64,000 nt of DNA from an uncultured delta proteobacterium (GCA_963842085.1 CAWJET010000002.1:1440001-1504000), one strand, 5' to 3'. Positions 4,411-20,904 are shown, counted from the stretch's first letter. Notes: a model not told the origin generated them from the letters alone. Program-made: numbers and translations.

Positions 4411-4540
4411 GTGATGGCGCTGTGACAATATACTCGCCGTATTCAGCGGGCGGATGTCGCGGCTGCGAAATCCGCTCGGTCAGGCTGCGTCCTTGGTCTG
4501 ACGCGACCTGACCGGACATTTGATCTTCGCCGATGTGCGT

Positions 4541-6172
4541 CTAAGTAGTGCCGATGGGGATCAACCGGGAGACCGTAAGATCGTTCGCGATTTGCTGGAA
4601 GATCTGGTTCAAGGTACCGGTCGATCGAGCATATGAGGCGCAGCCAGACTTGGTAGATGTGACGTCGGTGAAGAAGTTCGAGTTATTCTGCTCGTAGCTG
4701 CCCGACGACGTGGGCGAGTTTGCGATACCCTGCATCGTGCAGACTGGGCTGGAATATGTACCGGTGTCAGTCGTGCATCCCGTTGTCGCCGCGCCATAGG
4801 CGACTGCGTATACCGTGGTTCCCGCTGCCGCAGCGGCTTGGGATGCCGCTACTGCCTGGGCGCACTGCCCCGTCGCTGAGTAAACCTTCGATGGCGCAGG
4901 GTTTGGCGCCTCCATCCCTGCGGTTGGCGTAGCATTTGCTTCGCCATCGCTGACGAGGATCAGCACGTTCTTCGTTTGCACCCCTGCGCTGGCGCGCACG
5001 GTTTGTTGAGCAATGAGCGCGCTTTGTGCCGTATTAATCACGCCCGCGTAGAAGGTTCCCTCACCGCCCGGAGCTCCCAGGCCCGCGCTGCAACCGCCGC
5101 CGGCCGCGATCACGAGGTCGGAGCTGGCATACAGCGAAGTCGCTGTGTCGGAAGTGCGGTAGTCGCTCGAGAACGGAACGATCTGGTAGACGGGCGGGTT
5201 AAGGGTAGTAGCGCAAGTGGTCCCCTTGCCACTGCCTGTGCAACAAGGAACTGGTTTGCCTGAGCCTGTGCAATTGGAGGCATTGAAAAACTCGTTGTAC
5301 GAGGTAATCGGAGGGTTAGTAGTAGGGCATTTTATATCATCCTGAACATTCCCGATCGATGTCCCGCTCGCAGCCAATCCGGGAAACGTAAACAGCGCGA
5401 CTTCATCGACCGGGTTGTTCTCGACGTTGGTCGCAGTTTCGTTGCCACTCGCCGGCGTGGGAACCGCAACGGAGCTGGCTGTGGTCGCGCCGCAGCTTGT
5501 CAACCCTCCGGGACAGGGCGAGAGCGTGCTCAGCAGAACCTGGACGCCTTGCAACGCGCATTGGATTCTTTCTTTACCGCAATTTCCGCTGTCGCTCTGA
5601 GTCATCGAGTTCGTCGTGTCAACGATGATCGCCACGTTGTACGGGCCATTGAATCCGCCCTTTGCGCTCGCCATCGCGGTTGCCGAGAGGTTCCAGGTAT
5701 CGAAGCCGAGCACTCTGGCGAATGTCGTCGGCACTTTGGCTGTCTCCGTCACGGTCATCGCATTCATGCCAATCGAATAGGCGTTACAGGCGGGAACCCC
5801 CATGGCGACGGCGGCTTTGCTCGTCAGGCACTTCGTCGTAGCCGTCACCTTAACATTGGTCAGCGTACTGGAATTGGCGTTTGCATCCCCACTAGCGCCG
5901 CCGTAGCTCGTCGCGGTCGCTTCTGCTTCGCTTGATGTCTCACCGTCATTGGACATCACCGCGCCTCCCGCTAAGGCCGCCGCCTGGGTTTGAACCAGGA
6001 GCTGTTGATAGGCGTAATAGGCACGACCGACGTCGACTACGAACGCGACCGCTGCGAGAAGGCCGACCAAGGCGCCCGCGACCAGCACAATCGACTGCCC
6101 GCGCGGGCTGCCGCGCAGCCAGCGGACGATAAACTCATTGTTTCGGCCAAAAGATCCGTTGTTTTCTTTCAT
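4541..6172 (-). CDS. Tad pilus TadG-like protein (Tad N-terminal domain plus vWA-like domain)
   Basis: RGQSIVLVAG..hydrophobic..VDVGRAYY..QAAALAGG; IIVDTTNSM and ILVSDG MIDAS-like motifs. ATG at 6172 overlaps the TadE stop (ATGA). Confidence 0.85.
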   Translation of the reverse strand: MKENNGSFGRNNEFIVRWLRGSPRGQSIVLVAGALVGLLAAVAFVVDVGRAYYAYQQLLVQTQAAALAGGAVMSNDGETSSEAEATATSYGGASGDANANSSTLTNVKVTATTKCLTSKAAVAMGVPACNAYSIGMNAMTVTETAKVPTTFARVLGFDTWNLSATAMASAKGGFNGPYNVAIIVDTTNSMTQSDSGNCGKERIQCALQGVQVLLSTLSPCPGGLTSCGATTASSVAVPTPASGNETATNVENNPVDEVALFTFPGLAASGTSIGNVQDDIKCPTTNPPITSYNEFFNASNCTGSGKPVPCCTGSGKGTTCATTLNPPVYQIVPFSSDYRTSDTATSLYASSDLVIAAGGGCSAGLGAPGGEGTFYAGVINTAQSALIAQQTVRASAGVQTKNVLILVSDGEANATPTAGMEAPNPAPSKVYSATGQCAQAVAASQAAAAAGTTVYAVAYGAATTGCTTDTGTYSSPVCTMQGIANSPTSSGSYEQNNSNFFTDVTSTKSGCASYARSTGTLNQIFQQIANDLTVSRLIPIGTT

Positions 6173-6690
6173 TGTACAAACACCGCTGTTTGCGCTGTGA
6201 GGGTGCAACTAGGTGCGTAATTGTGTCCGTAGATTACGATGCTGCACGGATAAGTAGTCGTTACCTTGGCAGTTTGGCCTTCCACTAATGAGGCGCTGGT
6301 GCACGACGTCCCCGTATATGCACTCCCGTACTTAATCGGGGATCCGGTGCCCAGTGCAATCGAGAAGGTGAGCTTCGACGACTTGAGATATGGCGCTGCT
6401 TGTTCCACCGCTGCGCTAGTCGTCTGGCATGGGTCTGTGGTTTGCCCTCGGCTAATTGAGAGAAGCTGCGCACCGGCATTCGTAGCATATGTCAGCGTCA
6501 GATAGTTATTGAAAGCAACCCCTAACACCACCAGGGCTATAAGGAGCGTCAGCAGCAGCGGTGCCACGATAGCGAACTCGACCATCGCCTGGCCTTCCCC
6601 GCCGGGAACTCGACCACGGGTCTGCTTATCGCTAGAGCGTGTTTCGACGCGCGCTCGCGGTGAAACAGCAATCCGCCTCCGTCTGTTCAT
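6169..6690 (-). CDS. TadE-like pseudopilin
   Basis: GQAMVEFAIVAPLLLTLLIA...NAGA prepilin cleavage motif. Confidence 0.85.
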   Translation of the reverse strand: MNRRRRIAVSPRARVETRSSDKQTRGRVPGGEGQAMVEFAIVAPLLLTLLIALVVLGVAFNNYLTLTYATNAGAQLLSISRGQTTDPCQTTSAAVEQAAPYLKSSKLTFSIALGTGSPIKYGSAYTGTSCTSASLVEGQTAKVTTTYPCSIVIYGHNYAPSCTLTAQTAVFVQ

Positions 6691-10616: not shown

Positions 10617-10859
10617 TTACTCCACGCCCTCCTGGAAGATGGCATCGCCGCTCTCTTCGTCTTTCCCGACCTGTGCGGGCGGCGGGGTCAGCGCGATCGT
10701 TACGTTTTCAATCGTGCCCGTGAATTTGTTGTCGCCTTCTCTGTAGTCCTCGGTCACAGGCGTCGCGAGGTCTTCGCCAACGTCTTCGGTCTCGTCGGCG
10801 GAAAAAACGTAGGGGACCGTATTCTCGATTCGGCCCTCAGCCACCTTTTCTCCATTCAC
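10617..10859 (-). pseudogene. Arylsulfatase C-terminal fragment
   Basis: VNGEKVAEGRIENTVPYVFSADETEDVGEDLATPVTEDY...NKFTGTIENVTI; cut at the CTAG at 10860. Confidence 0.7.
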
Positions 10860-11073
10860 CTAGTATCCTGTCCCATAAATAACTTTACTTGTACCGACGG
10901 TTTTCTTAAGCAATCACAGGGTAAAAATGACCAGACGGCCAAAACCTATTTGCGGGACAGGACACTAGTGTCGTGTCCCGCAAATAGGTTTATGTTGTCG
11001 GCGCCATCTGTCCACGAAACTGCTTCAGAAAATCGTCGGTACAAGTAAAGTTATTTATGGGACAGGATACTAG
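10860..11073. mobile_element. Two inverted 105-bp MITE-like units delimited by CTAG, forming a 214-bp palindrome
   Basis: CTAG at 10860, 10965 and 11070. Each unit has terminal inverted repeats TATCCTGTCCCATAAATA / TATTTGCGGGACASGACA. Confidence 0.75.
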
Positions 11074-11420
11074 GGAAGCTCTGCACAGGTCGGTGTGCGG
11101 GGGCAATTTGCTGAAGTGGTCATGACAATCGGGTTCAGAGAGCGGAGGATGAGTGATGATTGGTCCGGCGTTGAGCGCCGCCGAGACTGCTCGCTGCCCG
11201 AAGTTTCTTCACAGCCCACACCTGGCCCCTGCTGGGAGCAGTTGCCTGCGGACTTGGTAGAGGTTGGCCAGGGCGAACATGGTCTGCGCCCGCGCCAGGT
11301 TTTTGGCCAGGCCGCGGTATCTCACTTTGGTGAAACCCCACAGTTGCTTGACCACGCGAAAGGCGTGTTCGCCGCGAGCCGGGTCCGCGAGCGCGCCCGG
11401 TTGATCATCCGCCAGCGCTC
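11074..11420 (-). mobile_element. IS5-family transposase 3' remnant with right end
   Basis: INRARSRTR(frameshift)GEHAFRVVKQLWGFTKVRYRGLAKNLARAQTMFALANLY...* (stop 11209). The end GGAAGCTCTGCACA abuts CTAG, matching the YTAR target of IS5. Confidence 0.8.
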
Positions 11421-11449
11421 CGGTGCGGTAACTATTTCAGGGAAGGGAG
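11421..11449 (+). repeat. 29-bp motif, inverted copy at 14534-14562
   Basis: CGGTGCGGTAACTATTTCAGGGAAGGGAG versus CGGTGCGGTAAGCATTTCAGGGAAGGGAG (27/29). Confidence 0.8.
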
Positions 11450-11476
11450 ACGTGGAGATGGGAGGGCGACGAACGT

Positions 11477-12071: not shown

Positions 12072-14504
12072 TTGAGCGCACCGTCCAGTCTGCTACCAAA
12101 GGGAAGGATCCTCTTGCTTGCTATCGCGGTTGCCTACTCTTGGGGAAAAGCATGGATCGGCGTGATCGCGATTTGTTGTGCGGCCGCACTTGCTATCTTC
12201 GGCCTTCATGGTTCTTCAGGCCGTGCGTACAGCGCGGACTCCACCCCGACGCTCTTCGTTACGGACGGCTGCTCCAGGGCCGTGACAGCTTATCCAGCCG
12301 CAAGCAACGGTGACATTTCGCCGCTGGCCCCCGCCCCTACCGGCCTTGCCCAACCGCAATATGTGGCCGTTGACAAAAATGGGAACATTTACGCCACCAA
12401 CCTTTGCACAAGGACCATCACCATTTACACCGAAGGGAGTAAGGGCAATGCTGCTCCCATCGCCATCATTGGCGGAAGCAACACCGGCTTAAGCAGCCCG
12501 GAAGGCATCGCGGTGGATTCCGGCGGCAACATCTACGTGGCAGATTTAGGTGCCGCCAGCCTGTTCGTCTATCCGCCGCTGGGAAGCAGCACCGGGTCGC
12601 TCAACGAGGCCCCCACCGCTACCATCAGCGGGAGCAACACCGGCCTGAATGCTCCGGTCGGCATCGCGCTGGATTCCAGCCGCAACATCTACGTGGCGGA
12701 TGCAAACGGCAACAGCGTGCTTGTCTATCCGCCGCTGGGAAGCAGCACCGGGTCGCTCAATGAGGCCCCGGCCGCCACCATTAGTGGGACCAACACTAGT
12801 CTGGGCGTACCACAAGGCATCGCGCTGGATTCCAGCCGCAACATCTATGTGGCGGCTGGAAACGGACGCGAAGTGTTTGTGTATTCAGCCGGGAGCAACG
12901 GCAATGCCTCCCCAATCGCCACTATCAATGGGACCGAGACCGACTTGGTCAACCCAGTCGGCATCGCGCTGGATTCCAGCGACCAAATCTATGTGGTGGA
13001 TTCCGGAACCAAAAGCGTGTTTGTCTATCCACCGCTGGGAAGCAACACCGGGTCGCTTAATGAGGCCCCGGCCGCCACGATTAGCGGGACCAACACCGGT
13101 CTTTTCTTACCACAAGGCATCGCGCTGGATACTGGCCGCAACATCTATGTGGCGGACGGAGGCAACTCCAGCGTGACGGTCTACTCGCCCGTAGGAAGCA
13201 GTACCGGGCTGCTCAACGAGGCCCCCAGCGCCTCCATTAGCACGACCATGACCACCGGTCTGATCTATCCAGAAGGCATCGCGCTGGATTCCAGCTCCAA
13301 CATCTATGTAGCGGATTCTGGCGCCGCCGACGTATTTGTCTACCCTGCCGGGAGTAACGGCGACACCGCCACACTCGCCACCATCAGCGGGAGCAACACC
13401 GGCCTGCGGGACCCACAGGGCATCGCGCTGGATTCCAGCGCCAACATCTATGTGGTGGATCTTTTGGGCAGCTTGTTTGTCTACTCGCCGCTCGGAAGCA
13501 GCACTGGGCTGCTCAACGAGGTCCCGACCGCCACGATCAGCGGGGGCAACACCGGCCTGAACGCTCCAGTCGGCATCGCGCTGGATTCCAGCCGCAACAT
13601 CTACGTGTCGGATTCAGGTGCCGCCAGCGTGTTTGTCTACCCGCCGCTGGGACATAGCACAGGGCCACTGAACGAGGCCCCCACCGCCACCATCAGCGGG
13701 AGCAACACCGGCCTGCGGGATCCACAAGGCATCGCGCTGGATTCCAGCCGCAACATCTACGTGGTGGACTGCGGTGAGTGTAACGGAAATGGCACCGGCA
13801 CCAGCGTGTTTGTCTATCCGCCGCTGGGAAGCAGCACCGGGTCGCTCAACGAGGCCCCCACTGCCACCATCAGCGGGAGAAATACCAGCCTGCTATATCC
13901 GATCGGCATCGCGCTGGATTCTAGCGGCGACATCTATGTGGTCGATCTTTTCGGCAGCGTGTTTGTCTATCCCCCGCTGGGAAGCAGCACTGGAGTGCTC
14001 GACGAGTTTCCCAGTGCCGACATAAGCGGACCACAAACGGAACTGGGTGAGCCTCTGTTCATCGCCATTCAGCAGTTGGGAGCTGCCACGCCGACGCCAA
14101 CCGCGAGTCCGACCTTCACCGCGGCGACAGCAACTCCAACGCCGACCGCGATTGCGACGCCGACTCCAACTGCGGCGCCGGTGACGCTTGAGATCAAGCC
14201 GAAAGCGCTCAAGTTCGCGAAGATCACGGTTGGAACGCCGAGCGAACCGAAAACGGTTACGGTGTCCAATCCTAAGGGCACCAAGAAGCATCCGGGGTCT
14301 GCGGTGTTGATCGAGATGATTTCCGATCCGGCGGTCTTCACCCAGACCAACGACTGTCCCGCGAGTCTAGCGCCGGGCACGGGTTGTTCGATCTCGGTGA
14401 CATTTACTCCGAGCGCGCCCACGAATCAGACCGGAGTGCTGACGATTACCGACAATGCGAAGGGTGGTAGGCAGACGGTGTCGCTTAGTGGCACGGGAAA
14501 ATAG
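12072..14504 (+). CDS. Secreted NHL-repeat beta-propeller protein with PT linker and C-terminal choice-of-anchor-D (ASH-like Ig) domain
   Basis: About 12 repeats of ATISGSNTGL..P.GIALDSSRNIYVAD...SVFVYPPLGSSTGSLNEAP; TPTPTA linker; ..CSISVTFTPSA..TGVLTITDNA..QTVSLSGTGK. Start uncertain. Confidence 0.85.
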   Translation: MSAPSSLLPKGRILLLAIAVAYSWGKAWIGVIAICCAAALAIFGLHGSSGRAYSADSTPTLFVTDGCSRAVTAYPAASNGDISPLAPAPTGLAQPQYVAVDKNGNIYATNLCTRTITIYTEGSKGNAAPIAIIGGSNTGLSSPEGIAVDSGGNIYVADLGAASLFVYPPLGSSTGSLNEAPTATISGSNTGLNAPVGIALDSSRNIYVADANGNSVLVYPPLGSSTGSLNEAPAATISGTNTSLGVPQGIALDSSRNIYVAAGNGREVFVYSAGSNGNASPIATINGTETDLVNPVGIALDSSDQIYVVDSGTKSVFVYPPLGSNTGSLNEAPAATISGTNTGLFLPQGIALDTGRNIYVADGGNSSVTVYSPVGSSTGLLNEAPSASISTTMTTGLIYPEGIALDSSSNIYVADSGAADVFVYPAGSNGDTATLATISGSNTGLRDPQGIALDSSANIYVVDLLGSLFVYSPLGSSTGLLNEVPTATISGGNTGLNAPVGIALDSSRNIYVSDSGAASVFVYPPLGHSTGPLNEAPTATISGSNTGLRDPQGIALDSSRNIYVVDCGECNGNGTGTSVFVYPPLGSSTGSLNEAPTATISGRNTSLLYPIGIALDSSGDIYVVDLFGSVFVYPPLGSSTGVLDEFPSADISGPQTELGEPLFIAIQQLGAATPTPTASPTFTAATATPTPTAIATPTPTAAPVTLEIKPKALKFAKITVGTPSEPKTVTVSNPKGTKKHPGSAVLIEMISDPAVFTQTNDCPASLAPGTGCSISVTFTPSAPTNQTGVLTITDNAKGGRQTVSLSGTGK

Positions 14505-14533
14505 CAGAGACAAGCGCCGCCACCGCCTTCTGC

Positions 14534-14610
14534 CTCCCTTCCCTGAAATGCTTACCGCACCGTCCGTGTACCAGTGCACCCTCCGGGAAGTGCACACACA
14601 TCCGCATGTC
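14534..14610 (-). repeat. Second copy of the 29-bp motif, adjacent to a hairpin homologous to the 15638-15677 spacer
   Basis: GTACCAGTGCACCCTCCGGGAAGTGCACACAC versus GTACGCAGCTGCACCCTCCTGGCAACTGCGCATCAC. Confidence 0.7.
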
Positions 14611-14984
14611 GGGCGCGGACATTGGATAATCCTGGACGAAGCAATTTTGCATATCAACATTGACGGGCGCTGTGCTGGTTGGAACTACATCAAAGTCAGC
14701 CATGAGCTGGGGAGGGAATGCCGCTCGTCGCAAACGCGTAGTTGACAACGCTCGACCCCCCGGTGCAGACGCGAAGCAACCCGGTCAGCGCTGGAAAAGC
14801 CTTGGACCGAACCCGCGAAAACACTGCTTGGGAGGTCGTTTAATGTACGAGGCGATTTCAAAATCCGAGAGAAAAGGGAATGTCAGTTCAGATTTGTCAG
14901 TAATATTTTTTGATGATTGTTGACTCGTATTTACGATATAGTTAGTTTTACTGCGCACCACAGAATCGCCAACGAGGGGGGCCG

Positions 14985-15407
14985 ATGAGGGTCGAGGACG
15001 CACTGCGAAAAATCGCACTATTGCGCAGGATCAGCACCGATAAGGGAGCACTGCCGGCGGAGAGAGAGACTGCGCACCGCCTGCAGAAGCTGCTGATGGA
15101 GCGTTACGCGATCAGGCACCAGGAGGTCTCTGAGGCCTCGCCGACGACGACTTTTCGCTTAAACTGGAGTTACTGGCGGGAACTGCTTGAAGATTTCGAC
15201 CTGTGTTTGAACCATTTTGGTGGCCGCGGCAGCGCCAAGGTCGGGAACAACAGTATCGTCTACATCAGGCTTGCTACCAACCAATGGCGGATCGAAGAGA
15301 GGTCCCCGAGCGGTTGGCAACCCACGGTTCGTGATCGGGGTATACGATCGTTGCGCGAATACCTTAAAGTGCACGCGCCAAAGAGCTATTCGCTTCTAAG
15401 GCGCTGA
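14985..15407 (+). CDS. DUF2786-like domain protein
   Basis: N-terminal ALRKIALLRRISTDKGALPAERETAHRLQKLLMERYAI resembles DUF2786; RBS GAGG. Confidence 0.6.
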   Translation: MRVEDALRKIALLRRISTDKGALPAERETAHRLQKLLMERYAIRHQEVSEASPTTTFRLNWSYWRELLEDFDLCLNHFGGRGSAKVGNNSIVYIRLATNQWRIEERSPSGWQPTVRDRGIRSLREYLKVHAPKSYSLLRR

Positions 15408-15546
15408 TCGCCGCGCCGTCAGCGCGGGCGTGATTGGTTTCCGGCTTCGGTCACCTCGGGACCGTTCCTATTCTTTCGCGCATTGTGGAAGCACGGTGCC
15501 AGCTCGCGCGAGTGCCAACCAGGGCCGCCCGTCCCTCCGCGCATCC

Positions 15547-15861
15547 TCGCTGAAATAGTCACGCTCATCCCAGGCTGTGAGCACACATCAGGCATCGATG
15601 GGGGGGAGCCCCTGGCGACCCTGAGATCAGGGTGACCGGTACGCAGCTGCACCCTCCTGGCAACTGCGCATCACGGGCATCGATGGGGGGCGAGCCTCCA
15701 GCGCCCGGATATCCGGGTGACCCATTAACCCTTTTCTGTTCTTGCCCGTCTTCGCTGAAATAGTTACCGTGCTGCTGTCCGACAATGTACCATCCCTCAT
15801 TCAGCACCACTCCAAACATCGATGGGGGGGAGCCCCCTGGTGACCAGAGATCATGGTGACC
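15547..15861. repeat. Structured tandem repeat cluster: three 45-bp repeats, two CTGAAATAGT(T/C)AC motifs, hairpin spacers
   Basis: 45-bp copies at 15593-15637, 15678-15722 and 15817-15861 (CATCGATGGGGGG..GAGCC..hairpin..GGTGACC); motif copies at 15550 and 15755. Confidence 0.85.
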
Positions 15862-16099
15862 AGGAGCGCGCGACGCCGATCGCCGAGAAGGTTGATGGCG
15901 CCTGGCAGATAGGTTCGCCAGATCGAACTGTGCCAGCAGCACTGCGACATCGTCGTCGAGCGCCAGCGAAAGCGAGGCTTGGAGATTGTGGACAAATCCG
16001 TGGTGGTTGTTTGCTGACCGCGCGCAAGATGTGCCATCCAGAGGTCGCTACCAACGCGAGTGCAGATCACTTCGAGAAAAATGCAATGAGGACCCCACG

Positions 16100-16245
16100 A
16101 TGCTTTACTGGATCATAGTCGGCATTATCGCGCGCTGGCTGGCCGGCAAGCTCGTGCATTGCGAAGGTTTCGGATTAATCGGCGATCTCATACTCGGCCT
16201 GATAGGAGGCCTCGTCGGCGGCTCGCTATTCGGCGCGCTCGGCAA
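16100..16245 (+). pseudogene. GlsB/YeaQ/YmgE (transglycosylase-associated) membrane protein fragment
   Basis: MLYWIIVGIIARWLAGKLV..EGFGLIGDLILGLIGGLVGGSLFGALG, then truncated. Confidence 0.75.
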
Positions 16246-17202: not shown

Positions 17203-18282
17203 GGGCGATGTCCCACCGGATGTTGAAATTCGAATTTGAGTAAGTAGCGGCGGCTACGGGCCGACCTGAGAATGGGTCTGGCAAGAACACCGTCCCCGAG
17301 GTGGGAAGAAGGAGCCGCCGATGAAGAACACAGCAAACGCCAGAGTGCCGGCGCAAGTTGGCGCCGGTCTGTTGTTGACAACGCAGCAGCTGCTGCTGCC
17401 GATGATCGAGGGCATCGTCCACAGCCGGCGCGAGCTGTTCGCCTGGGTGCAGCAGGTGGGGGTCAATGCGCTAAAAGAGTTGTTCGAGCTGGACGTGGTG
17501 GAACTGGCCGGACCCCGGGGCAAGCATCGCGCCGAGCGATCTCATTATCGCTGGGGTGCAGCGCCGATCGTGCTGCCGTTCGGTGGCCGGCGGATAGTTG
17601 TACCTTGTCCACGAATACGCGGCGTGGGTGGAGGCGAGGCGCAGCTGAAAAGTGCCTCCCACTTCCGCGCCATAGATCCGGTTCCCGCGCGGGTGCTCAA
17701 CCAGATCCTGCTCGGAGTCTCGACGCGCGGTTACGACCAGAGCCTGGAGCCGGCGCCCGCCGAGATAATCGTCCGCGGAGCCAGCAAGAGTTCAGCGAGC
17801 CGCCACCTGATCGCGCGCATGAGCGACAAGCTGCGCGAGCAACTGAGCCGCCGGCTCGAACAACTCGACCTGCTGGTGCTGATGGTCGACGGCATCGAGA
17901 TCGCGCATCGCACCGTGGTGGTGGCGCTGGGGATTTTGGCCGACGGACGCAAAGCAGTGCTGGGCCTGGGGCTGGACTCGACCGAGAATGCCGCGCTTTG
18001 CACCTCGCTGCTCAACGATCTGCTCGAGCGCGGGCTCAAGGTCGACGGCCGCGTCCTGTGCGTGATCGACGGCGGGCGCGGGATCAGAAAGGCGCTCGCC
18101 GACGTGTTCGGCGATCTGTCGGTGGTGCAACGCTGTAGAGTGCACAAGCAACGCAACATCCTCGACCACCTCCCGCCCAACCGCAAAGCCTACGTCTCAC
18201 GCATGCTCGCCGAGGCCTGGAACAGCGATTCCGCCGCGTTGGCGCGCCGGTGGCTGAAGACCCTGCTGCGCTGGCTGGAGAC
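17203..18282 (+). mobile_element. IS256-family element, 3'-truncated (transposase ORF 17321-18304)
   Basis: GVSTRGY, LMVDG, VVVALGI..DGRKAVLGL...STENA, VIDGGRGI.KA, QRCRVHK.RN motifs; the third catalytic (TN.IE) region is missing. Left-end-like GGCGATGTCCCACCGGATGTTGAA. Confidence 0.85.
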
Positions 18283-18574
18283 CAAGCTTTCTATGATATC
18301 TTAATTTCAACGTAACTATCAATTATTGAGAATTACTCCTCATTAGGGGGATAAAAAGGTTATTTACACTCAAGGCTGTTGGTAAGATGAAGTCGATTCG
18401 TCTCTGCCTAAAGTTAAGCTTAACAAGAAAATCAAAAGGAAAGATCGAATCGCTTAGGAAAGCGTAAAGCTGCTGCAACGAACCCTTACTCAAGGTAAGA
18501 CAAGGTGCTGGACGAGGCATCCTCAGAAGAATTGTCTTGTCGCACAGGCATTTTTCCCGCGTTGGGGATGGCAT

Positions 18575-18880: not shown

Positions 18881-19765
18881 ATGACGCTGCCGCGGGTCTT
18901 GTTCGTAACCGGCAAAGGGGGGACCGGCAAGAGTACGGTCGCTGCCGCGATTGGGCTTGCGCTGTCGCGCCGGCGTCCGACGACGCTCGCCGATCTCGAC
19001 CGGCGCCTGTCCGCGGCCGCGGCGCTCGGCGCGGTACCGGAAGATTCAGCCGCCGTCAAAATCACCGATTCGCTGGACGTGGTTGCGCTGACGGCGCGCG
19101 CAGAGCTCGAGGCGTTCATCGAGCGCATCGTGCCGATTCGCGCCATCTCGCGCCGGATGCTGCGGAGCCGAACCTTCGGCTACGTCACGGCGGCGCTGCC
19201 GGGACTCGAGGCCTTTCTACTGCTGGAACGTCTGCGAATCATAGCGGGAGACGCGGCGCTCGAGGATCGCTACCTCGTGATCGACGCACCGGCGTCGGGC
19301 AGCGCGGTCGAGCTGCTTTCGGTCTCGTCGGGGGTGAAGGGAATCGCGCCGGGCGGGACGCTGAACCGGCTGGCGGGCTCGATCGACAGCTTTCTTGGCG
19401 ACCCGAGGCGATTCGGCGCGGTAATCACGATGACCCCGGAGGATCTGGCAGTGCGCGAGGCGCTTGAGACCGCCGCAACGATTCGCGCGCGCCTCGGCGT
19501 GGTCACGGTCGCGGCGATAATGAACTGCGTGCCCGACCTGCTGTTCGACACCGCCGAACTCGCGGCGCTTAGCCCGCTCGGCGGCCATGCCCGCCTTGCT
19601 GTTCGCCGAAACGCGGCGCACGAACAGGCGGCTCTCGTCGCGCTGCGGTTCGCCGACGCCGGTATCGCGACCGTCAGCCTGCCGATGATGTTCACGCCGG
19701 CTGTCGGGCGCCGCGAGCTCGACAAACTCGGCCGCAAGCTGGATGCGGAACTGCTCGACCGATGA
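18881..19765 (+). CDS. ArsA/Get3-like ATPase, subunit 1
   Basis: FVTGKGGTGKST deviant Walker A; AALPGLE; VIDAPASG. Confidence 0.85.
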   Translation: MTLPRVLFVTGKGGTGKSTVAAAIGLALSRRRPTTLADLDRRLSAAAALGAVPEDSAAVKITDSLDVVALTARAELEAFIERIVPIRAISRRMLRSRTFGYVTAALPGLEAFLLLERLRIIAGDAALEDRYLVIDAPASGSAVELLSVSSGVKGIAPGGTLNRLAGSIDSFLGDPRRFGAVITMTPEDLAVREALETAATIRARLGVVTVAAIMNCVPDLLFDTAELAALSPLGGHARLAVRRNAAHEQAALVALRFADAGIATVSLPMMFTPAVGRRELDKLGRKLDAELLDR

Positions 19766-20904
19766 AGCCCAGGGCGCATCCAAAGCAGTCCGCCCATCCC
19801 CAGCCGCTGGACTTGCACGCGCAGAGCCTGGTCATTTGCCTGGGGCCCGGCGGCGTCGGCAAGACAACAATCAGCGCCGCGCTGGGCGTGCGCGCCGCCG
19901 TTCTCGGATGCGCCGTCGATGTAATGACGGTAGATCCCGCGCCGCGCCTGCTCGACGCGCTCGGCCTCGGGGCGGACTCGTCCGAGCCGGTCGAGGTTTC
20001 GCTCGACGGCATTCGTCATGCGCGCCGCGGCGGCGGACCGAATCGCGCCAGGCTGCGCGCGTTGCGGCTCGATCCGAAGCGCACCTTCGATTCGATCGTC
20101 GCGCGCTACGCACCGTCGAACGCGGCGCGCGACACCATTCTCGAGAATCGAATCTATCGCAATCTCTCGGGCGCGCTGGCGGGCGTGGCGGATTACATGG
20201 CGATGGAAAAGCTGCTCGAGCTGGCGGCCAATCCGTCAACCGACCTGCTGGTGCTCGACACTCCGCCCGCGGCCGAGGCGATCGACTTTCTCGACGCGCC
20301 GCGCCGCCTGCTCGAACTGCTGAACTCGCGCGCGGTGACCCTGCTCGGCGCGCCCGCGGGATTATTCAGGAGCCAGTTGCGGATGGTGGACGTGGCGGCG
20401 CGCGCGGTGCTCGCCGCGTTCGACCGCGTGACGGGACTGAACCTGCTGAGCGACGTGCAATCTTTCGTCCGCAGTTTCGACGGCATGTACGAGGGCTTCT
20501 CGGCGCGTGCCGCGCGCGCCCAGGACAAGCTGCGCGCGCCTGACACGGCAATCGTGCTCGTGACGACGGCGGAGTCGAGCCGAATCGCGCAGGCGCGCCA
20601 ATTTATCGGCGCACTCAAACGCGCCGGCCTGCGGGTCGCCGCGATGGTGGTGAATCGTGTGCTCGCGGAACTGCCCGACGCCGCGGAGCTGGCGTCAGCG
20701 CACATCGCGCCATCGCTCAAAAGAAAATTGAAGCGCAATCTCGCCGATTACGCCGCGCTCAAGACGCGCGAGGAACTGTCGCTCAACGCACTGCGCGATT
20801 CGCTTCCGGCCGGCGCGGTGCTGATGGTTGCGCCCGACCTCGGCCGCGAGCCGCGCACTATCGCGGACCTGGCTGAAATAGGGCGCAGCTTGCGCGCCAG
20901 TTAA
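19762..20904 (+). CDS. ArsA/Get3-like ATPase, subunit 2
   Basis: CLGPGGVGKTT, TVDPAPRL, YMAMEKL, LDTPP, FLDAP.RL; ATGA coupling to the upstream gene. Confidence 0.9.
   Translation: MKPRAHPKQSAHPQPLDLHAQSLVICLGPGGVGKTTISAALGVRAAVLGCAVDVMTVDPAPRLLDALGLGADSSEPVEVSLDGIRHARRGGGPNRARLRALRLDPKRTFDSIVARYAPSNAARDTILENRIYRNLSGALAGVADYMAMEKLLELAANPSTDLLVLDTPPAAEAIDFLDAPRRLLELLNSRAVTLLGAPAGLFRSQLRMVDVAARAVLAAFDRVTGLNLLSDVQSFVRSFDGMYEGFSARAARAQDKLRAPDTAIVLVTTAESSRIAQARQFIGALKRAGLRVAAMVVNRVLAELPDAAELASAHIAPSLKRKLKRNLADYAALKTREELSLNALRDSLPAGAVLMVAPDLGREPRTIADLAEIGRSLRAS

Follow-up and report, generated by a model that had tools for sequence, protein, structure and literature searches.

The locus considered here raises the question of what kind of element is formed by three direct repeats of 45 nt, each preceded by a different small inverted repeat, in the genome of an uncultured delta proteobacterium. 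The window, i.e. the whole stretch of 64,000 nucleotides that was analysed, corresponds to C2:1440001-1504000 of a two-contig genome (G000, 4.93 Mb). In a preliminary description of the window, the repeats had been read as a modular array with structure under selection. The three 45-nt copies were found at positions 15593-15637, 15678-15722 and 15817-15861 with the sequences quoted there, and the difference between CCCTGA/TCAGGG and CCCGGA/TCCGGG in the 3' stem is present in the sequence. A repeat search grouped the copies into a single family; they are spaced by 85 and 139 nt and are 67–78% identical over 54 nt. The exact 12-mer ATCGATGGGGGG is restricted to these three repeats within the 64-kb window; at up to two mismatches it was observed eight times where 7.75 matches are expected, a count that is uninformative in either direction.

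A second conserved motif had been proposed as well, and the corresponding 16-nt box TCGCTGAAATAGTYAC is indeed present in exact form at 15547 and 15752. The lone motif near 11421 and the degenerate motif-plus-hairpin unit near 14534-14610, both mentioned in the preliminary description, were recovered as copies of the box at 11428-11443 on the minus strand (one mismatch) and at 14540-14555 (three mismatches). These four matches compare with 0.53 expected by chance, and none of 100 shuffles reached four. The inverted repeats in front of the 45-nt copies differ from each other as claimed and are visible in both the sequence and the predicted folds, namely GCTCA/TGAGC (15563-15567 and 15578-15582), CGCAGCTGC/GCAACTGCG (15642-15650 and 15660-15668) and GTGCTG/CAGCAC (15769-15774 and 15802-15807). 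With nhmmer and a covariance model the copies reach E-values of 1e-9 to 1e-37, which is far above chance.

The extent of the repeated element was defined by aligning about 20 related stretches obtained by iterated nhmmer searches over G000. The 45-nt repeat is the 3' module (D module) of a larger modular unit of about 125 nt. In the aligned units, a full unit measures 106-139 nt and is composed of four parts: a pyrimidine tract of 25-30 nt that occurs in three versions (CCCTTTTCTGTTCTTGCC..., CCCTCCCATCTCCACGTC... and CACTCCCGTCACTGTGCGCG...), the A-box CTGAAATAsTTA, a variable middle of 32-56 nt with a few alternative versions, and the D module, which reads cATCGAT-GGGGGG-nGAGCC-CCTGGCG-short palindrome-GGGTGACC. 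The most conserved letters of the alignment are those of the A-box, ATCGATGGGGGG, GAGCC and GGGTGACC. The unit starts with (T)CACCCT and ends with GGGTGACC, and its terminal inverted repeat is merely 5-7 nt long (TCACCC...GGGTGA). Units are arranged head to tail in arrays of one to four, and all members of every array point in one direction. Not every copy carries all modules: the A-box is absent from unit 2 of the window, the D module is absent from the copies at 14517-14612 and 11418-11466, and several copies in the genome are partial or have modules missing. The modularity that had been claimed thus holds for the family, the modules being combined differently from copy to copy.

A covariance model (R1) was built from 12 units and used to score the copies of the window. 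Unit 1 (15524..15637, plus strand; 85.6 bits, E 2.7e-22) is made of a pyrimidine tract (15524-15546), the A-box TCGCTGAAATAGTCAC (15547-15562), the GCTCA/TGAGC hairpin (15563-15582) and the D module (15593-15637). Unit 2, the one without A-box (15639..15722, plus strand), scores 62.2 bits with a match limited to model positions 50-133; it contains the CGCAGCTGC/GCAACTGCG hairpin with a ACCCTCCTG loop (15642-15668) and the D module at 15678-15722. Unit 3 (15729..15861, plus strand) is complete, with 117.5 bits (E 3.5e-31), and comprises an CCCTTTTCTGTTCTTGCCCG tract, the A-box at 15752-15767, the GTGCTG/CAGCAC inverted repeat (15769-15807) and the D module at 15817-15861. The partial unit at 14517..14612 (plus strand, 54.1 bits) carries a tract, the A-box variant TCCCTGAAATGCTTAC and a GCACCCTCCGGGAAGTGC hairpin. 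The copy at 11418..11466 on the minus strand (40.5 bits) is a stump with tract and A-box which ends after CCGCACCGG. Directly behind it, at 11278-11415, lies a possible C-terminal remnant of a DDE_Tnp_1-like (IS4/IS5-type) transposase, a weak match below the cut-off (PF01609, E 0.0032, 17.7 bits).

Unit 3 is itself a hybrid according to blastn: its 5' part resembles L001:12325-12384, whereas its 3' part resembles the neighbouring L001:12155-12229. A segment of the window at 15789..16244 (plus strand) is a duplicate of C1:2560228-2559771 (L001:12229-11772) with 93.9% identity over 459 nt. Included in it are the 3' portion of unit 3, a spacer and the 5' portion of a gene for a small membrane protein of the GlsB/YeaQ type; this gene is cut off in the window. 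Three copies of this gene were found, at L001:11483-12058, at L003:6310-6885 and in the window at 15958-16244. The PF04226 family was matched in the L001 copy alone, and tblastn between the window and L001 gave 91% identity over 58 amino acids. The copies on C1 and at C2:1669k encode an identical protein with 99.3% DNA identity, while the window copy stops at 16244. On C1, the gene is followed downstream by 88 extra nucleotides between AGCAC direct repeats.

Searching G000 with R1 yielded 21 matches at five places: C1:467.7k (2 matches), C1:2553.5-2562.9k (11), C2:1262.6k (1), the window (5) and C2:1669k (2). The copies are strongly clustered, with 11 of the 21 inside 10 kb. A sister species (G001) has four matches, all on one contig, and the family is consequently present in 2 of 40 genomes of the genus. 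The search of 38 further genomes of the genus gave no R1 match, nor did that of 24 genomes from other genera of the class. These genomes are a sample, many of the assemblies being fragmented, and G018 and G023 (unpublished) are counted only among those that gave no match. A gapped D-module pattern run on one genome per species (185,579 species) hit 39 loci, that of G001 alone being true according to R1. On metagenome contigs the same pattern hit 60 loci; 22 matches to R1 are distributed over 11 of these, an array comprising four units at most. The homologues whose collection had been proposed were thus found in G000, in G001 and at metagenome loci. A-box counts agree with this distribution: 11 in G000, 3 in G001 and 0-1 in each of the 38 other genomes, i.e. 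the level of the control pattern. The lone A-box hits inspected in other genomes are unlike units and are read as chance matches; the A-box is a property of the unit and not a motif of the host or the genus. A further A-box, missed by the models and followed by a type-iii-like hairpin (ATCCTGAAATAGTTATCGTGTGCTTCACC...), was seen at C2:1406056-1406067 (minus strand) of G000, so degenerate copies beyond the 21 probably exist.

Comparison with known families was negative. Over the whole window Rfam gave no match at the gathering score, and at E<=10 over 9-22 kb it gave five chance-level hits, none of them inside the array, in line with the earlier statement that no known family could be recognised. 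A scan of the window for tRNA and tmRNA genes found none. A comparison of the variable hairpins with phages and plasmids had been proposed; searches with the repeat against phage and plasmid records (blastn) and viral contigs (pattern) returned no match.

Direct repeats of equal length (45 nt) separated by intervening sequence, together with long open reading frames over the array on both strands, could bring to mind a CRISPR-like array, a processed array like those of type III toxin-antitoxin systems, or a protein-coding repeat. The CRISPR reading was excluded, as it had been in the preliminary description: the spacings (85 and 139 nt) are irregular, the repeats are 67-78% identical, and the would-be spacers of 40 and 94 nt recur as repeat versions at other loci and hence are not unique. 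A Pfam scan of 18 ORFs in the 9-21 kb part of the window detected no cas or endoribonuclease family. A conserved coding frame had been named as another possible explanation of the repeats. It was likewise excluded, by indel lengths and by the lack of an open frame: of 3523 relative indel runs between units, just 360 (10%) have a length divisible by three, and every frame is stopped in most of 37 units, none being open across units. The ORFs overlapping the array have no Pfam match. We give readings of this group next to no credence.

The same Pfam scan identified NHL, Mutator transposase and ArsA/ParA-type ATPase families in the surroundings of the array. The NHL/beta-propeller repeat protein (810 aa, 12072-14504) is encoded by a gene with internal repeats whose periods are 156 and 300 nt, the Mutator/IS256-type transposase ORF lies at 17321-18304 (E 1.9e-26), and two adjacent genes for P-loop ATPases of the ArsA/ParA/MinD type (18881-20904) are found about 3 kb downstream of the array, with no link to the repeat detected. 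Further upstream, positions 10859-11074 form a long imperfect palindrome of two 108-nt arms which are 81% complementary without gap and give miRNA-like Rfam hits at chance level; a 27-nt direct repeat occurs at 10942 and 11047.

The claim of selection on single-stranded structure was not sustained by folding. For whole units, the z-scores of RNA folds lay between -2.0 and +1.1 on the given strand, and the opposite strand gave -0.4 to +1.3 (10 units each). The middle region and the D module of 34 distinct units were also folded separately, each against 100 dinucleotide shuffles. Mean z was +0.29 on the given and +0.18 on the opposite strand for the middle region, and -0.17 and +0.31, respectively, for the D module. 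Values below -1 on the given strand were obtained for 3 of 34 middles and 8 of 34 D modules, and this set includes all three D modules of the window and the middle of its unit 3. The window copies are therefore among the best folders of the family, which accounts for the impression of selected structure gained from them. It should be mentioned that the thermodynamic test has little power at hairpins of 4-6 pairs.

Covariation was evaluated in an alignment (A2) of 46 distinct, related rows that had been fitted to the same structure it tests. In the two short hairpins of the D module taken together, 80.7% of cells are paired compared to 76.2% in shuffles, a level reached by none of 500 shuffles, and 7 of 10 pairs show double changes where 3.6 are expected (3 of 500 shuffles). 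In the G-run hairpin (D1), 90% of cells are paired, with G-C, G-U and A-U among the variants; G-U occurs in 45 cells and A-C in 6, 32 of the G-U stemming from one almost invariant pair. The 3' palindrome hairpin (D2) is 71% paired, with 15 G-U, 15 A-C and 42 other mismatches in 199 cells; as G-U equals A-C, D2 displays no strand asymmetry. A pairing between pyrimidine tract and G-run, suggested by RNAalifold and by single folds, was rejected, since it shows just C/U changes opposite G and double changes at shuffle level. In summary, the covariation in the two short D-module hairpins is modest; small hairpins exist, and selection for structure is weakly supported at best.

Genes next to the units were compared across loci. 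Neighbours supported by Pfam are a squalene-hopene cyclase, an XRE regulator, a cytochrome c, GlsB/YeaQ, a sigma-54 activator, a response regulator and DUF924, and further DUF2141, MreB, TPR, a BBE oxidase, a radical SAM protein, SnoaL and an IS110 transposase. They are mutually unrelated and occur in every orientation. Some arrays precede a gene read in the same direction (by about 75 nt for cytochrome c and about 70 nt for MreB of L096), others follow such a gene (GlsB in L003, radical SAM in L136), and others again face the 3' ends of convergent genes (cyclase, response regulator, DUF924, TPR, BBE oxidase), which argues against a dedicated leader or promoter of one gene class. No protein travels with the units, as judged by tblastn of 19 ORFs of the two main loci against G001 and the metagenome loci. 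A DUF2786-like gene had been put forward as a partner. The ORF in question, of 140 amino acids and upstream of the array (14985..15407, plus strand), is outside the repeat family and matches no Pfam family at E<=5. It belongs to a protein family of four members with 63-76% identity (window 14985-15407, C2:1268225-1268644, C2:1284181-1284597 and C1:1532282-1532701). None of the three paralogues stands beside units, the nearest being about 5.5 kb from a partial unit, so that one member of four adjoins units. Next to the C1:467k array, at L002:1800-5520, a gene for a TIR-domain protein and a divergent second copy of the squalene-hopene cyclase gene were observed, the latter with about 72% DNA identity to the genus-wide gene.

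Candidate mobilising enzymes were also sought. The arrays have no recombinase, integrase or transposase gene as a recurrent neighbour. Tyrosine recombinases (PF00589) gave 14 matches in G000, of which the nearest lies about 29 kb from any array if C2 is circular and at least 95 kb otherwise. One weak match to the Y1 transposase family (PF01797, 33 bits) at C1:1118947-1119174 is far from all arrays. The search for Y2 transposases gave none in G000 and also none in all control genomes, and is uninformative.

The units are concentrated in variable parts of the genome, where additional core-gene copies, a tRNA gene and IS fragments are also located. Genes located between arrays are copies, with 76-100% identity, of genes that G000 has elsewhere: the sigma-54 activator is an 87% copy of C2:938785-939968, the version common to the whole genus, the response regulator is a 76% copy of C1:397659-398291, and one block of two genes matches C1:1773383-1775710 as a copy with 86-93% identity. 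The cluster on C1 is bordered by a tRNA-Thr gene and an IS630-like element. At L001:4300-5565, tRNA-Thr(CGT) is directly followed by this element, which has imperfect inverted ends (TGyATAATATAGwTACA). As the element after the tRNA gene abuts a truncated unit, the repeat cluster on C1 has the look of a tRNA-associated island. In total, two units are stumps adjoining IS-like sequence.

Homology was found to break within three bases of a unit edge in four cases: between L096 and two G000 loci, at GTGACC|; between L088 and window 4525-6521, two bases off the 3' end of a unit; between the response-regulator copy and its core paralogue, immediately past GTGACC; and between L003 and L001, where a 576-nt tract with 99.3% identity ends three bases from the first base of the L003 array. 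Furthermore, a 2.1-kb block with the response regulator and the sigma-54 activator is inverted between G000 (L001:12490-14622, i.e. C1:2560489-2562621) and G001 (L030:14112-16254, C7) at 87% identity, while the flanking units keep the same direction; it adjoins the 3' end of the upstream unit in both genomes and is a single case. No empty site with both flanks conserved was found, including 4.25 kb around the C1:467k array in 40 genus genomes; at that array one flank is conserved, which is a 71-73% paralogue of a core gene. Insertion of the units is therefore hypothetical, as are a target duplication and exact ends. In contigs from four public DNA runs, the joints mostly correspond to paralogous copies elsewhere and hold no information on excision.

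From these data, the array is best explained as three tandem members of a young, lineage-restricted, modular family of small interspersed repeats, similar in kind to streptococcal BOX elements and enterobacterial BIME mosaics, a reading to which we assign a probability of about 0.55. The 21 copies, their narrow spread, the lack of a family-wide fold, the non-coding nature of the units, the unrelated neighbours, the breaks at unit edges, the hybrid unit and the islands of paralogues all speak for this reading, and the unit resembles a selfish repeat prone to recombination more than it does a structured RNA or a guide array. The repeats belong to no described family; their kind, small interspersed mosaic repeats, is already known. 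The family would have spread and been reshuffled by recombination between copies: unequal crossing-over could produce hybrid units such as unit 3 of the window, gene conversion may halt at unit edges, and the DNA between arrays would be rearranged along the way. Some enzyme possibly moves the units in trans. The short hairpins would be by-products of small palindromes, and units read through from a neighbouring gene may form incidental 5' or 3' RNA structures. We do not think that the units are a dedicated RNA or guide system required by the host. Several observations fit the interspersed repeat less well. Its terminal inverted repeat is very short, no mobilising enzyme was found near the arrays, the copies are more clustered than those of typical dispersed repeats, an empty site was not found, and some features (the A-box letters, the pairing of D1 and one terminator-like junction) would suit an RNA gene.

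The latter features lead to the possibility that the units are sibling small RNA genes, such as are known in tandem from other bacteria. Each unit would then be its own transcription unit with the A-box as a putative extended -10 promoter; the predicted RNA would start at the first hairpin, bear C/U-rich stretches resembling an anti-Shine-Dalgarno sequence (CCCUCC loop) and end with the two D hairpins, and at abutting units its terminator would be a GGGUGAC..CACCC hairpin with a U-rich tract behind it. In our reading, the conserved A-box letters T28 G29 A31 A32 T36 (TGnAAnnnT) fit the extended -10 pattern TGn-nAnnnT, a hairpin follows 2-4 nt after the A-box in all three versions of the middle, one unit junction (GGGTGACCTTACCC plus TTTTCTGTTC) scores as terminator-like, and the paired variants of D1 with their excess of G-U over A-C, as well as the double changes in 7 of 10 pairs, would be expected of an RNA. 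However, units and their parts fold at shuffle level, D2 is paired in 71% of cells with G-U equal to A-C, and the covariation alignment was fitted to the structure under test. The U-rich version of the tract starts only about 15 of 40 units (hand count), and the last unit of an array has no such tail. A sigma-70 promoter scan, which demands a -35 element, gave no site in the arrays of the window and L001, and no fitting sigma-54 (-24/-12), sigma-32-like or ECF-like motif was seen in the unit by eye. Together with the presence of the family in 2 of 40 genus genomes and the many copies which are stumps cut by IS elements, this makes small RNA genes a doubtful, if conceivable, explanation.

The palindromes of the D module (ATCGAT, GGCGCC, CCCGGATATCCGGG and GGTGACC) might instead be sites at the DNA level, bound or cut by a protein. 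Judged from the sequence, such sites could serve recombination in the capture, loss and inversion of gene copies, integron-like in effect, or form an iteron- or centromere-like array. For the former, one may invoke the four homology breaks near unit edges, the inverted block that lies beside the 3' end of an upstream unit with its flanking units unturned, the one- or two-gene blocks paralogous to core genes between arrays, and the better conservation of sequence blocks than of pairing. Edge breaks are also expected from ordinary homologous recombination and insertion, though, the inversion is a single case, attC core sites are absent from the units, and no recombining enzyme recurs beside the arrays; the five genome places, the many metagenome contigs and the unrelated neighbours are a poor fit to a centromere or an origin. 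Sites of this kind are unlikely on balance. The breaks within three bases of unit ends and the block inverted between sister species would also be in keeping with a more specific proposal, namely that the units are sites of an unrecognised gene-capture system whose islands are built from copies of the host's own core genes, with one or two genes per block. If so, blocks bounded by array ends would be inserted, replaced or flipped by an enzyme other than an integron integrase. We consider this improbable.

With the units, read as interspersed repeats, the Binatia gain a described repeat family; for this class of uncultured bacteria from soil, a limited literature search yielded no described repeat or small-RNA family. 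The family marks those parts of the genome that are variable and rearranging, and recombination breaks fall at the edges of its units. The repeat also breaks short-read assemblies, and it is thus useful for strain typing, assembly checks and studies of genome plasticity. It also calls for caution, as three well-folding copies alone suggested selected structure, a signal which vanishes family-wide. Should transcripts or a binding protein be found, the family would gain importance.

Among known systems, the sibling sRNAs of the cuckoo/CcsR and LhrC types are conserved across genera, with demonstrated transcripts and clear terminators. The present units share with them homologous copies of about 100 nt arranged head to tail, hairpins and CCUCC-like loops, but their transcripts and terminators are hypothetical, their spread is narrow and no Rfam family matches them. 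Integron attC sites are imperfect palindromes with RYYYAAC/GTTRRRY cores between gene cassettes. Here, too, imperfect palindromic sites lie between blocks of one or two genes, with block edges at site ends. In contrast to integrons, RYYYAAC ... GTTRRRY cores are absent as read from the alignments, none of the arrays has an integrase of the IntI type closer than about 29 kb, genes occur in both orientations, and the main palindrome has equal numbers of G-U and A-C mismatches.

MITEs such as Correia, ERIC and RUP possess clear terminal inverted repeats and target duplications and are mostly single. The units resemble them as short non-coding repeats with possible co-transcription with neighbours and promoter- or terminator-like pieces, and differ in their inverted ends of 5-7 nt and in the dominance of tandem arrays; no target duplication was found. 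REP/BIME elements are mosaics of short palindromes and other motifs in intergenic DNA, clustered and known as hot spots for recombination and IS elements. REP units measure 20-40 nt, usually alternate in orientation and are associated with RAYT transposases of the Y1 type. The units described here are likewise clustered mosaics of palindromic motifs in intergenic DNA at hot spots for recombination and IS elements, whereas their length of 106-139 nt and their direct orientation within every array set them apart from REP/BIME. No RAYT gene is nearby, the one weak Y1 match being that at C1:1118947.

The units also resemble BOX elements, known from Streptococcus pneumoniae and S. suis, which PMC3049150 describes as boxA-boxB(n)-boxC modules, modular, clustered, over-represented between convergent genes, tightly folded and with no informative link to the function of neighbouring genes; Correia, ERIC and RUP are mentioned alongside. 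BOX and the present units agree in several respects: modules can be absent or repeated, the elements are intergenic, often clustered, and located between convergent genes and upstream of genes, neighbour functions are uninformative, small palindromes would fold if transcribed, and a mobilising enzyme is known for neither. They differ in that whole units of about 125 nt are in tandem here, whereas one inner module multiplies in BOX, and in copy number, which exceeds 100 for BOX compared to 21 here, concentrated in few variable regions. BOX elements are described as tightly folded, while folding of the present family is at shuffle level. A sequence relation is neither seen nor expected. The host belongs to another phylum. 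The units are nonetheless non-coding modules in variable combinations, found at many intergenic places beside unrelated neighbours, which is what defines the BOX-like class, and the likeness is one of kind and not of homology.
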